This document shows, piece after piece, positions 21,726 through 27,227 of a DNA stretch of 64,000 bases. Source of the DNA: Escherichia phage AV108; the sequence record OR352938.1, one strand, 5' to 3'. Under the pieces are notes generated by a model. That model did not search any database, was not told the origin of the DNA, and saw only the letters and a program-made list of their open reading frames with translations. The position numbers were made by a program, and so were the translations under genes. The first letter of the stretch is position 1. Every line of letters begins with the position of its first letter.

Positions 21726-22502
21726 TTACACGCGAGCACCGTAGATCGTGCCTACTTTATCCCAGCGAGGGGCATTGCCAGTAACAGCCTTACCAGCCGC
21801 TCCGCCATTATACTCTGTACCGTTCCCCTGAGTATTACATCTTCCTCCAGCAGCACCAACGTTACCGCCCGCACCGCCTGTATATGCACTAAGAGACCCC
21901 GAACCAACAGATCCTTTACCCGGAGCGGAAATGGAGCCAGCGGTTGCACCAGAACCCATATTAGAGGAAGACCCGGCAGCACCGAATGGGCGACCACCGC
22001 CACCACCAAATACTAGTCGACCCCTGTTACCTCCACCGCCGCCACCGCCGCCACCAGCGATAGCACCGTTATTTGTAATTCGTAGACGTGTACCGATAGC
22101 GTTATTGATTGCGTTTCCACCAGCAGCGCCAGCAGCGTTACTACCACCATTACCCCCACGTCCGTAGACAGTCACACCGGAGTTAATGATCAATGTTACA
22201 TATTCGTTTGTTAACGAGCTAGGGAAGTCAAGACAAGGAACGCCAGTAGATTGGGAAACAATATCACCCGTGATAGTAATTACTACAGGAGTAGATCCTT
22301 GTGCTTTCATCCAGTTAATAAGAGTGTCTTTATTGTAAGAGTTACTAGCACCAATGCTATAATGAATCTCTTTAGAGCGTCCGACCATTGCCGACATATA
22401 CGCCGGACGACCTAAGCGTACAGCTTGCATTGCGGCGCTCATCCACCGTTGACCAGTCTCGGACACAGCAGATGATCCTACCCATCCAGAAGATATTGCC
22501 AT
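21726..22502 (-). CDS. glycine-rich protein resembling T2/T6-type gp38 long-tail-fibre adhesin (258 aa)
   Basis: N-terminus ...GWVGSSAVSETGQRWMS...; C-terminal ~150 aa dominated by Gly-rich motifs (GRGGNGG, GGGGGGGGGN, FGGGGGRPFGAAG, GGAGGNVGAAGG) separated by short variable segments; ends ...GTIYGARV. Size and motif layout match gp38 adhesins as recalled, not searched. Confidence 0.55.
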   Translation of the reverse strand: MAISSGWVGSSAVSETGQRWMSAAMQAVRLGRPAYMSAMVGRSKEIHYSIGASNSYNKDTLINWMKAQGSTPVVITITGDIVSQSTGVPCLDFPSSLTNEYVTLIINSGVTVYGRGGNGGSNAAGAAGGNAINNAIGTRLRITNNGAIAGGGGGGGGGNRGRLVFGGGGGRPFGAAGSSSNMGSGATAGSISAPGKGSVGSGSLSAYTGGAGGNVGAAGGRCNTQGNGTEYNGGAAGKAVTGNAPRWDKVGTIYGARV

Positions 22503-23496: not shown

Positions 23497-23831
23497 TTGT
23501 AACCCTCCTCTGAAAGCACATCCCAGATCGTTGAGTCAAGGTGCATTAAATTCCACATAATAGAGTCATAACTACCGAAGCCAGAAGTAAAAATTACATC
23601 ACACTGGCGATAGGTCTTATGAAAATCGGTGGCTGTCTCTGCATCAATAGGCATATCGTCACCGGAAAGCACCAGACATTTAAGAATCATAACTCTGTTA
23701 GCCGTTGGCGCTTGCTTAGTCTTTTCAGCATATTTTTCGATGATCCGTTTTGCCTTTTCTTCTTTGATACGTCCAGACCAAATCCGGTTTCGGTATTGAT
23801 TCATAATAATTTCAATCACATCATTTTGCAT
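23493..23831 (-). CDS. hypothetical early protein (112 aa)
   Basis: ORF track. Confidence 0.45.
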   Translation of the reverse strand: MQNDVIEIIMNQYRNRIWSGRIKEEKAKRIIEKYAEKTKQAPTANRVMILKCLVLSGDDMPIDAETATDFHKTYRQCDVIFTSGFGSYDSIMWNLMHLDSTIWDVLSEEGYK

Positions 23832-24030
23832 TCTTCACGGTCTCCATAATTGTTTTGTAAGCCAGTTTAAGATGATCACCGAAAAACTTTGCGGTGTTAC
23901 CCTTCGGATCGCGGAGCATGGTTTCTACGATCTCATCGGCAGTAACAATTTCTCCTTTCTTTGCTGCATGTTCTACCATATACTTCAAAGTTTCTTCGGA
24001 AGCAAGTGCTGCCGCTACTGGATTAATCAT
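23821..24030 (-). CDS. hypothetical early protein (69 aa)
   Basis: ORF track; first gene after a promoter cassette. Confidence 0.5.
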   Translation of the reverse strand: MINPVAAALASEETLKYMVEHAAKKGEIVTADEIVETMLRDPKGNTAKFFGDHLKLAYKTIMETVKNAK

Positions 24031-24091
24031 TTTTGATTCTCCTTTGTTGTCGATATGTGCATTATGCTATACCCTATTCCGGTTGTCAACA
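24031..24091 (-). promoter_or_regulatory. PeSL-like early promoter-leader cassette
   Basis: Minus strand GTTGACA, tatagcataatgcac -10 region, leader ...aaaggagaatcaaaaATG. Confidence 0.6.
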
Positions 24092-24097
24092 CCTAAA

Positions 24098-24130
24098 AAC
24101 GAAAAAGCCACCCTTTCGGATGGCTTTTTG
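24098..24130 (-). terminator. rho-independent terminator downstream of the Dps-like gene
   Basis: Minus strand agccatccgaaagggtggct hairpin followed by ttttcgttttt. Confidence 0.6.
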
Positions 24131-24359
24131 ATTATATTTTATTCACGTCCATTTGTATAGTAGTGTTTGAATCGACCTTTGCTAAACTAGTTAAACATAG
24201 TAACCAATTCACCATCCCTTTCCAATGATAACCCTTCCTCATCTTAGACGGGTCTTCCGATTCGGTAGTAATTGAACACGCGAAAGTATGAGGAAGCCAA
24301 ATAGTTGTGTTAATGCTAGTATTCTTTTACTTCTGGTATGCATCCCACAGTGACTAACA

Positions 24360-24758
24360 TTAATCCAGTCGAGTGAGTTTATAAATTGTTTTAAAGCATA
24401 GAGCTTTGATATCGTCTAAAACGCTCTGTAACGAGCTATCAACATCATTATAAATCTCACTAGCCATTTGCGTTAACTCTTGCAAATAGGCAATTTCGCT
24501 AATCTCCTTGCGGACGACCAACTTTGGCTGATAACGACCAGTGATCCCAATATTGGTTTCAGTGAAATTATCAACCAATTCTTGCATTTCAAGATAGAAC
24601 TCTTCTAGAGCCTTATGTTTTGCATAAGATCCAGGACCAGTTACCCCAAAATGCGCAGAATGCATATAAGTAACACTCATCAGACATTCACCGATAAAGC
24701 GGTCAACTTTATTAGCCTTTCCCTCTTCGGACGTCTTTAGAAAATCACTGAATTTCAT
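24360..24758 (-). CDS. Dps-like mini-ferritin (ferritin-like four-helix-bundle protein, ~133 aa)
   Basis: ORF track 24360..24857; likely start ATG at 24758. AHF-(x11)-H-(x14)-D-(x3)-E has the same spacing as the E. coli Dps ferroxidase ligands H51/H63/D78/E82. Confidence 0.6.
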   Translation of the reverse strand: MKFSDFLKTSEEGKANKVDRFIGECLMSVTYMHSAHFGVTGPGSYAKHKALEEFYLEMQELVDNFTETNIGITGRYQPKLVVRKEISEIAYLQELTQMASEIYNDVDSSLQSVLDDIKALCFKTIYKLTRLD

Positions 24759-25047
24759 GTTCTCGATTCTCCATATTATGCAACAGAACAAATTGTTGTG
24801 CGGCATATCCCCCCATAATAAAACACTGCCTAGAATCCATACATTTACTACGAGCATACATCTTCATAATATGGGCATGAAATTTCTGGCTGGTTTCAAT
24901 GGAAGGAGATATTTTGTTTACATATACTATCATTGCGCCGTCGAAATAATCAGTAAAGTCACCAGTTGGATCATATTGATCAGCACTGACACTTCCGACC
25001 GCAGTCAAGCATATTGCCGCTGTTAGAGTTTTACGAATAAATGACAT
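24745..25047 (-). CDS. exported protein with N-terminal signal peptide (100 aa)
   Basis: MSFIRKTLTAAICLTAVGSVSA-DQ: basic N-region, hydrophobic core, AxA-like cleavage site. Confidence 0.55.
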   Translation of the reverse strand: MSFIRKTLTAAICLTAVGSVSADQYDPTGDFTDYFDGAMIVYVNKISPSIETSQKFHAHIMKMYARSKCMDSRQCFIMGGYAAQQFVLLHNMENREHEIQ

Positions 25048-25080
25048 AAGTCATTCCCCCAGATTGAAAATATTCAGTTA

Positions 25081-25088
25081 TATTTATA
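25081..25088 (-). promoter_or_regulatory. T4-type late promoter motif TATAAATA
   Basis: Plus-strand tatttata, i.e. TATAAATA on minus, ~35 nt upstream of the 25047 start codon in the tk-downstream intergenic region. Confidence 0.4.
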
Positions 25089-25115
25089 ATCCGGGGCTTT
25101 ATTTATGATTAACTC

Positions 25116-25712
25116 TTATTTGGTAGTACCATCAATAAAATGTTTACGACACACAGAAACATATTTATCCTCTGCACCAACTTCTATTTGAGCACCATCG
25201 CGAATAACATTACCATCTTTATCTACGCGAAGGACCATAGTCGCTTTCTTGCCACAATGACAAATACCCTTCATTTCGACCAGTTTATCAGCAAATGCCA
25301 TTAATGCCGCAGATCCTTCAAATAGATTGCCCTGAAAGTCAGTGCGAAGGCCATAGCACAGTACAGGGATATTAGCATCATCAACAAGCGCACACAAGCC
25401 TAAAACATGCTCTTTAGTCATAAATTGGGCTTCATCTACAAATACAGCATCAGGACGCCAGCGATCCGTTCTACGCTTACCTAGTGATTCACGATAAACC
25501 AAGTCGAAAAGATCATCCGATTTAGTGAAGGTGATCGCTGGAGCACTTAGACCAATTCGGGAAACGACTTCACTTTCTGAATCTCGATTATCAATCGCTG
25601 GTTTAAGAATTAATACTCGCATATCACGTTCGGTATAGTTATAAGCACTTTGTAACAGAGAAGTTGATTTGCCAGCGTTCATAGATGCATAGTAGAAATA
25701 TAATTGCGCCAT
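25116..25712 (-). CDS. tk: thymidine kinase
   Basis: 198 aa; YYASMNAGKSTSLLQ P-loop, VFVDEAQF, GLRTDFQG, CHCGKKA zinc motif; colinear with T4 Tk as recalled. Confidence 0.92.
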   Translation of the reverse strand: MAQLYFYYASMNAGKSTSLLQSAYNYTERDMRVLILKPAIDNRDSESEVVSRIGLSAPAITFTKSDDLFDLVYRESLGKRRTDRWRPDAVFVDEAQFMTKEHVLGLCALVDDANIPVLCYGLRTDFQGNLFEGSAALMAFADKLVEMKGICHCGKKATMVLRVDKDGNVIRDGAQIEVGAEDKYVSVCRKHFIDGTTK

Positions 25713-26867: not shown

Positions 26868-27227
26868 TTAGTCACGGGAAGACAACCCAGCCATAAAACG
26901 GCTTAACAGTGTGTCGCGATAAGCAAAGCATAATTGCTTATCAGGGGCAGTATCACAAAGGTTGCGTTTTGTTTTAGCAAAGCTGGCAATACTCAGATCC
27001 CACGCTCGATTTTTTCGTTTTTCGTCTCGACCTTGTTTGTATGCTTCGTCGAGTTCAAGTGCGATAAAATCACTACACATGTTATCATCATCACAGAAAG
27101 TTTTAATGATCTTTTTGTTGATCTCAAATCCTTTGTATTCGAACTTTGGATAAGGGCGCTCATTACTAGCAAGCGCACCAGCCGAGAACATCATAGCAAT
27201 CATAGCAATTATTGTCAACTTTTTCAT
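26868..27227 (-). CDS. secreted/periplasmic protein with signal peptide (119 aa, 4 Cys)
   Basis: MKKLTIIAMIAMMFSAGALA-SNE signal peptide. Confidence 0.55.
   Translation of the reverse strand: MKKLTIIAMIAMMFSAGALASNERPYPKFEYKGFEINKKIIKTFCDDDNMCSDFIALELDEAYKQGRDEKRKNRAWDLSIASFAKTKRNLCDTAPDKQLCFAYRDTLLSRFMAGLSSRD

Follow-up and report, generated by a model that had tools for sequence, protein, structure and literature searches.

A compact Dps-like protein encoded by the T4 rI.-1 orthologue of Escherichia phage AV108

Why would a T4-like phage encode a protein with the metal ligands of a Dps mini-ferritin, directly downstream of a gene for an exported protein? The question is raised by Escherichia phage AV108, of which a stretch of 64,000 nucleotides (sequence record OR352938.1; hereafter, the window) was analysed, and more specifically by a gene at 24360..24758 on the minus strand. 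Its product of 132 amino acids contains the pattern H36-x11-H48-x14-D63-x3-E67, and the first-pass annotation of the window, made from the sequence alone, was right in pointing out this set of residues in a shortened helical protein. It had also called the gene unusual for a T4-like phage, which is not the case: the open reading frame (ORF) is the Krischvirus (RB49-type) orthologue of T4 rI.-1, and of 50,697 phage records searched by tblastn, 1,413 contain a homologue, most of them from enterobacterial Straboviridae, T4-type phages included, and Ackermannviridae. T4 rI.-1 is conserved, has been without an assigned function for decades, and lies in the operon that controls lysis inhibition, itself one of the signalling problems that have resisted phage biologists longest. 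By sequence, profile and structure searches, the product of the AV108 orthologue is a member of the Dps branch of the ferritin superfamily, and this reading of it as a compact Dps provides, for T4 rI.-1, a specific hypothesis about its biochemistry, and one that is inexpensive to test.

The rI.-1 orthologue and its product

The DNA of the region is 97.6-98.5% identical to that of RB49-like phages (genus Krischvirus), and in RB49 the two genes in question are annotated as rI (RB49p086) and rI.-1 (RB49p085). T4 RI.-1 (gene rI.-1, also mobD.6; UniProt P13303) occupies the same position, directly downstream of rI and with tk further up, and resembles the AV108 protein in the N-terminal sequence MKFSDF, in length (129-132 amino acids) and in keeping all four ligands. 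The differences are that the AV108 protein is only 36% identical to the T4-type protein and has a three-residue Gly-x-Gly insert in the loop between helices A and B, which T4 RI.-1 lacks, and that RB49-type phages, unlike T4, lack an rI.1 gene in the interval from tk to rI. RB6, a phage of the T4 type, has the gene order tk, rI.1, rI, rI.-1, with a 4-nucleotide overlap between the last two; in the Slopekvirus-like Klebsiella phage phi1_146002, rI and rI.-1 are 3 nucleotides apart. The AV108 protein matches the Pfam family PF19174 (DUF5856) with 75.1 bits (gathering score 34.6; E 9.8e-21), and PHROG 858 across residues 1-131 of 132 (E 3.7e-43).

The upstream gene, at 24745..25047 on the minus strand, encodes the RI antiholin, a lysis-inhibition regulator of 100 amino acids (Pfam PF24205, Antiholin, 3e-23; PHROG 1246, 'lysis inhibition', 2.7e-25). 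Its N-terminus, MSFIRKTLTAAICLTAVGSVSA-DQ, has a basic n-region followed by a hydrophobic core and a VSA motif and is like a signal peptide or signal anchor; the product is exported, as had been recognised from the sequence at the outset. The idea that the mini-ferritin is paired with a secreted protein holds as far as adjacency goes; the partner, however, is the antiholin of the known rI operon, and the pairing is lineage-specific. The start of rI.-1 overlaps the end of rI by 14 nucleotides, and the two genes are translationally coupled. A mechanical list of ORFs extends the rI.-1 frame out to 24857, which would yield a protein of 165 amino acids. We rejected this longer start and kept 24758 on two grounds: the T4-type orthologues have the MKFSDF N-terminus too, and a start at 24857 would create an overlap of 113 nucleotides with rI; the MKFSDF start is also that of the T4-type orthologue RB6_107 and the one annotated in RB49.

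The label of PHROG 858, 'starvation-inducible transcriptional regulator', together with RefSeq product names, would make the protein a DNA-binding transcriptional regulator, and some Dps proteins do bind DNA via lysine-rich tails. We consider such a role very improbable. No DNA-binding domain was detected in a Pfam scan, and the protein is acidic (isoelectric point 5.2). Its N-terminal 17 residues, with four lysines and three acidic residues, are modelled with a low predicted local distance difference test score (pLDDT) and form the least conserved segment, unaligned or absent in most relatives; given this poor conservation and the acidity of the protein, a lysine-rich DNA-binding tail does not appear to be a trait of the family. 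The name looks to have been inherited in corrupted form from 'DNA starvation/stationary phase protection protein Dps', and we set the regulator aside as a naming artefact. Automatic annotation already hints at Dps, both in the PHROG 858 name and in the JGI product name 'DNA-binding ferritin-like protein'. Because the gene is already catalogued (as T4 rI.-1, DUF5856 and PHROG 858) and its annotation echoes Dps, the value of the present assignment as a discovery is modest.

Relationship to Dps and the metal ligands

A single-sequence phmmer search of the Protein Data Bank (PDB) matches almost only chains of the Dps family, with Dlp-2 at the top (E 1.2e-4), followed by Bacillus brevis Dps, Dlp-1, Staphylococcus aureus Dps, MrgA and HP-NAP. 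In the alignments with Dlp-2, B. brevis Dps and Dlp-1 (E 1.2e-4 to 2.4e-4), the four ligands fall on the ligand positions of these proteins. The profile of a 90-sequence family alignment (mean identity 33%) matches HP-NAP and Dps with E from 1.7e-4 to 5e-3, again with the ligands in register; at E 1.7e-4, it pairs H36, H48, D63 and E67 with H25, H37, D52 and E56 of HP-NAP, which we take to be the ligands of that protein. The structures aligned by phmmer or by the profile are 1jig, 1n1q, 1ji5, 4evd, 1ji4 and 2d5k. A MAFFT alignment with E. coli Dps also puts the ligands in register.

Two AlphaFold2 runs, one with a shallow and one with a deep alignment, gave pLDDT of 86.7 and 93.9 and the same four-helix topology, with helices at about residues 17-37, 44-73, 88-105 and 108-130. 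In a Foldseek comparison with the PDB, the 15 best matches are all Dps, and very few of the first 50 are anything else (probability 1.00, template modelling (TM) score 0.6-0.77, E about 1e-2). Several motifs are common to Dps and the AV108 protein, namely HxxH where helix A ends, E-E-F-Y (with Y55) downstream of H48, and a glycine that follows helix B. Dps proteins of the Bacillus/Helicobacter type (Bacillus anthracis Dlp-1 and Dlp-2, B. brevis and S. aureus Dps, Helicobacter pylori HP-NAP) are like it in the four-helix bundle, in the HxxH and in the order H...EEFY...D-x3-E, and the H-x14-D-x3-E spacing on helix B is identical. The rI.-1 product is a cytoplasmic, acidic, 15-kDa four-helix bundle and a member of DUF5856, a short-form branch of the Dps mini-ferritins that is apparently specific to phages. 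Lack of a ferritin-like fold in profile or structure searches, which the first-pass annotation had held would speak against its reading, is not what we found: three independent routes, by sequence, profile and structure, all give Dps, with the H/D/E pattern aligned to ferroxidase sites.

Could the pattern of ligands be a coincidence? It is found once in the six frames of the window, where 0.025 occurrences are expected from residue shuffles, and in combination with the homology this leads us to reject a chance motif. Conservation was followed in 172 aligned family sequences with a mean identity of about 30%, among them T4 RI.-1 and members from Ackermannviridae and crAss-like phages. H36 is kept in 170 of these, H48 in 169, D63 in 170 and E67 in 171; all four are intact in T4-type, Ackermannviridae, Slopekvirus-like and crAss-like members, and ligand loss is seen in a single full-length protein. 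That the ligands are nearly invariant in proteins otherwise so diverged speaks for selection on the metal site. Other conserved positions in the same alignment are Y126 (171 sequences), Y55 (166), D115 and T124 (161 each) and H33 (147). On the minus strand, the codons from H36 to E67 take up 24558..24653, and the H33 codon, at 24660..24662, is located just upstream of this stretch.

The exact Dps spacing on which the initial reading had laid weight is present in the AV108 protein, but its H-x11-H part is a feature of a lineage. It stems from the Gly-x-Gly insert in the A-B loop, shared by the AV108 protein and about nine of the 172 family members, whereas 162 members, T4 RI.-1 included, have H-x8-H. 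The H-x14-D-x3-E part, which lies within one helix, is family-wide.

Two cysteines of the AV108 protein, Cys25 on helix A (codon 24684-24686) and Cys121 on helix D (codon 24396-24398), covary in the family, the pair being Cys/Cys in 34 sequences and Leu/Ile in 63. This suggests a contact in the core of the bundle, and in the T4-like subgroup the cysteines may possibly form a disulfide or an extra pair of ligands.

H48 is 15-19 residues away from D63 and E67 on the continuous helix 44-73, which corresponds to roughly 22-28 Å. These residues are too far apart for one metal within one chain, so that, judging from the models, the metal site would have to lie between subunits, as it does in Dps. 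The classical intrasubunit site of ferritin and bacterioferritin (Glu on helix A, ExxH on B, Glu on C, ExxH on D) was considered and rejected because there is no ExxH in the 132-residue sequence; the conserved residues follow the Dps pattern.

A putative role in iron and peroxide handling, and its alternatives

These features point to a Dps-type intersubunit metal site that would handle iron and peroxide in the infected cell, a reading in which we place about as much trust as doubt. We infer an oligomeric state (dimer or higher), iron as the metal, ferroxidase chemistry and a physiological benefit. The protein would assemble into a compact oligomer of the Dps type, no smaller than a twofold dimer, in which H36 at the end of helix A and H48 at the start of helix B meet D63 and E67, in the middle of helix B, of the twofold-related subunit. 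The resulting His/His/Asp/Glu site at the dimer interface would bind Fe(II) and oxidise it with H2O2 or O2, thereby depleting the Fenton reactants in a host that the phage has deprived of its own stress responses. Being co-expressed with rI in T4-like phages, the protein could supply this protection through the long latent period of lysis inhibition.

Phage proteins of the Dps superfamily have been proposed before to limit iron and peroxide damage during infection (PMC6669764, PMC8008677); their genes were described in Lactobacillus plantarum myophages (PMC6669764) and in 'Gratiaviridae' and other gut phages (PMC8008677). Those genes are recognisable as ordinary host-like Dps homologues, unlike DUF5856. 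According to the 2021 survey, the phages known to have Dps-like enzymes were limited to seven of Lactobacillus and the gut phages that it reports, and the T4 RI.-1/DUF5856 family is not named there as a relative of Dps (PMC8008677). With more than 1,400 genomes carrying one, the published picture of Dps-like genes as rare in phages (PMC8008677) would change.

Several observations weigh against a Dps-like activity in the infected cell. At the level of family models, the AV108 protein gives no match to Pfam PF00210 (Ferritin) at E<=1, and its score with the NCBIfam Dps model PRK09448, 15.1 bits (E 0.019), does not reach the curated threshold of 114. At the level of architecture, the BC helix, which in Dps caps the twofold dimer interface, is absent: the B-C crossover, residues 74-87, is extended and non-helical in both models (pLDDT 79-94). 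Helix C, with only 16-18 residues, is about 10 residues shorter than in Dps, and because of these two features assembly into a dodecamer and the presence of a mineral cavity are uncertain. The tryptophan that follows the first histidine ligand (W52 in E. coli) is replaced by Phe37. Literature searches found no paper on Fe(II) oxidation, an iron core or DNA protection by rI.-1 or DUF5856, and the genetic data on T4 point to lysis inhibition and interplay with RIII rather than to iron or oxidative stress (PMC2962797). To these departures we may add that helix D is shorter, with a gap of 9 residues in the MAFFT alignment with the E. coli Dps sequence; that the position after the first histidine is Leu in 115, Phe in 45 and Trp in 9 of the 172 family sequences; and that the protein as a whole, at 132 amino acids, is 12-35 residues shorter than the matched Dps of solved structure (144-167). 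T4 rI.-1 and its relatives, about 1,900 clusters, thus appear from alignments and models to be a minimal, architecturally distinct variant of Dps with an intact ferroxidase-type site. If active without a BC helix and with a half-length helix C, the protein would represent a minimal scaffold of the Dps type, which could interest engineers of protein cages.

The T4 data deserve a closer look, as they could mean that RI.-1 is a dedicated lysis-inhibition factor, which contacts RIII or the cytoplasmic part of the holin T to adjust when lysis occurs and uses its bundle as a scaffold or as a metal or redox sensor with input into that timing. RI.-1 expressed from a plasmid slightly prolongs lysis inhibition, in synergy with RIII; it relieves the toxicity of RIII and is without effect in an rIII mutant (Golec et al. 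2010, PMC2962797). Because plasmid-made RI.-1 acts after the shut-off of host gene expression, it is probably a stable protein (PMC2962797). The overlap or near-abutment of rI and rI.-1, which is kept in Krischvirus, Tequatrovirus and a Slopekvirus-like phage, agrees with a dedicated factor. We nevertheless regard it as unlikely. The lysis-inhibition data on RI.-1 were all obtained by overexpression, and the phenotypes are modest; near-invariance of four metal ligands would be unexpected for a pure scaffold; and ligand-intact homologues occur where T, RI or RIII are missing, i.e., in RaK2 (which has no T, RI, RI.1 or RIII; PMC3622015), Ackermannviridae, crAss-like phages and the portal-linked clade discussed below. 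Since homologues are found in phages without T, RI and RIII, the role of the protein would be independent of lysis inhibition. If the protein handles iron and peroxide, the slight prolongation of lysis inhibition on overexpression could arise indirectly, from preservation of the infected cell and its phage DNA. The study of Golec et al. (2010) was the only functional one on rI.-1 found in the literature search, in which no paper mentioned DUF5856 and none that contained 'rI.-1' tied the gene to Dps or ferritin.

How far does the family extend beyond the rI operon? An exhaustive HMMER search of 1.84 billion representatives yielded 1,906 clusters (at 50% identity) with E<=1e-3 and 279 with E<=1e-10, and most of these homologues are 113-140 amino acids long. 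Contexts without rI are seen in Ackermannviridae, Crassvirales, RaK2 and uncultivated phages with a P22-type portal. In a Kuttervirus, the homologue is located among hypothetical genes, two genes upstream of that for DNA primase, and in the crAss-like phage cr127_1 it stands between DNA ligase and thymidylate synthase.

Such neighbours bear on another possibility, that the protein is an iron store or chaperone that hands Fe(II) to phage iron enzymes, such as subunits of ribonucleotide reductase, or to iron-containing parts of the virion, with detoxification not its main role. The ligand set and the fold would suit this function as well as they suit removal of iron and peroxide, and the genes nearby, including tk in AV108, are engaged in nucleotide metabolism and replication. 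No Dps protein is known to have a delivery function, and the neighbourhood lends little support, since genes of this kind make up most of the non-structural set in large phages; the portal-linked clade, moreover, does not fit. We therefore doubt that iron delivery is the main role, even though expression would be compatible with it: in time-resolved omics of T4 infection, RI.-1 protein was detected in infected cells, and its RNA and protein were both classed as middle (PMC9697503, supplement 4).

The portal-linked clade was found among uncultivated phages in IMG/VR. Searches with the narrower of two family alignments, which biases the recovered set, gave 75 loci with a homologue, of which 71 have an ORF upstream; in 60 of the 71, this ORF encodes a P22-type portal protein (PF16510, 5.8e-172). 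Portal and DUF5856 genes overlap or are at most 2 nucleotides apart in 56 of the 60 loci, the distance being -4 nucleotides in 41. The order in this clade is TerL, GroES-like Cpn10, portal, DUF5856, tail-fibre-like or approximately 100-amino-acid ORFs, and then scaffold, and the homologue, of 120 amino acids, has intact ligands (loci L007-L086, e.g. L027, 1755-4360, and L019, 1851-4372). Clustering at 50-70% identity reduces the loci to about three groups, and they were recovered by a biased pattern search, so that the linkage to the portal is a property of one clade and not a general rule. Elsewhere, the DUF5856 domain is found inside very large, partly low-complexity proteins: P0071 (1934 amino acids; L006, 8001-13805), P0145 (1439 amino acids), P0142 (832 amino acids), P0127 and P0094. 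Pfam and PHROG searches of these large proteins gave no informative partner domain, only the uncharacterised DUF3008 and PHROGs of unknown function on P0086, and the neighbours of P0071 are all unannotated.

Foldseek also detected a ferritin- or Dps-like domain in viral proteins named 'prohead protease' (BFVD A0A6J7XDU5, A0A6J7WIS1 and A0A6J7WPK9; TM 0.61-0.76, E about 1e-2). These model-based matches hint at capsid-targeted ferritin-like domains in some phages.

Might the protein then be a head- or genome-associated mini-Dps, made with the head proteins and packaged with DNA or acting on it, for instance by protecting encapsidated or ejected DNA? The portal gene directly upstream, the scaffold gene a few genes downstream, the domains embedded in large low-complexity proteins and the 'prohead protease' matches would all suit such a protein. 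We think it quite improbable, given that the 60 portal loci amount to a single clade and that the 'prohead protease' matches are weak. In T4, moreover, the protein is middle and not late, its gene stands among early and middle genes, and a search for evidence in virion proteomics found none.

A broader and bolder proposal, which we offer as a long shot, would join these contexts. DUF5856/RI.-1 would be a widespread phage-specific minimal Dps that forms a small oligomer instead of a cage of 12 subunits; many phages would have tied it to head assembly, either by coupling it to the portal or by fusing it into large putative internal proteins, and there it would perform iron and peroxide chemistry beside the packaged DNA, whereas in T4-like phages it would have been recruited to the rI operon, there coupling the iron or redox state of the cell to the duration of lysis inhibition. 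The head-tied part of this proposal echoes the ferritin-like cargo of encapsulins, which have the HK97 fold.

Outside phages, 185,579 genomes representing bacterial and archaeal species yielded a single match (57% identical), on a 178,077-bp contig of a Flagellimonas marina assembly (NZ_JBHSCL010000010.1; locus L088), which is probably a phage genome inside a bacterial assembly. As the patterns used to search the bacterial genomes were narrow, this result lends restriction of the family to phages weak support.

Layout of the locus and neighbouring features

All features of the unit are on the minus strand. The upstream gene is tk, for thymidine kinase, at 25116..25712 (Pfam PF00265, 6.3e-52; PHROG 592, 1.2e-80; annotated as tk in RB49). 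The 68-nucleotide spacer between tk and rI contains an exact match to the T4-type late-promoter consensus, TATAAATA, at 25081..25088, 33 nucleotides upstream of the ATG of rI. This motif, which the first-pass annotation had noted downstream of tk, is plausibly a late promoter: it also lies between tk and rI.1 in RB6, and the T4 rI operon has a late promoter between tk and rI.1, as well as an early promoter 3.3 kb upstream (PMC2962797). In the window, TATAAATA occurs four times against 6.0 expected and is not enriched, so that the support it gives is positional. The suggestion of late expression accordingly stands in part, in that the T4 operon has a late promoter; the early promoter of the same operon and the middle class of T4 rI.-1 RNA and protein (PMC2962797, PMC9697503) do not agree with it.

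Downstream of the rI.-1 stop, a spacer of 230 nucleotides (24130..24359) with two small ORFs of uncertain status, 24239..24343 (34 amino acids) and 24132..24242 (36 amino acids), both from the ORF list, leads to a strong intrinsic-terminator-like hairpin at 24102..24129. The hairpin, with a 12-bp stem, came from a consensus scan, and AAAAAGCCATCCGAAAGGGTGGCTTTTT followed by a T-run can be read directly in the sequence. Beyond it, at 24061..24089, a promoter-like site of the sigma-70 type (TTGACA-17-CATAAT, 11 of 12 positions, by consensus match only) would start the next unit. Because the terminator-like hairpin and the sigma-70-like promoter both lie downstream of it, rI.-1 is the last gene of a unit that consists of tk, rI and rI.-1. 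An Rfam scan of 23700..25300 gave no family near its gathering score. Nothing is annotated in RB49 in the spacer at 24130-24359, and one small coding sequence is annotated there in phage GoldenSnicker.

Two further genes of the neighbourhood may be mentioned. A gene for a gp38-like, glycine-rich tail-fibre adhesin (RB49p079) is found at 21726-22502 on the minus strand, about 1.9 kb past the 3' end of rI.-1, among small early-type genes. On the other side, at 26868-27227, also on the minus strand, is a homologue of RB49 'vs' (valyl-tRNA synthetase modifier), the product of which begins with a signal-peptide-like sequence, MKKLTIIAMIAMMFSAGALA, unexpected for a modifier of a cytoplasmic enzyme.

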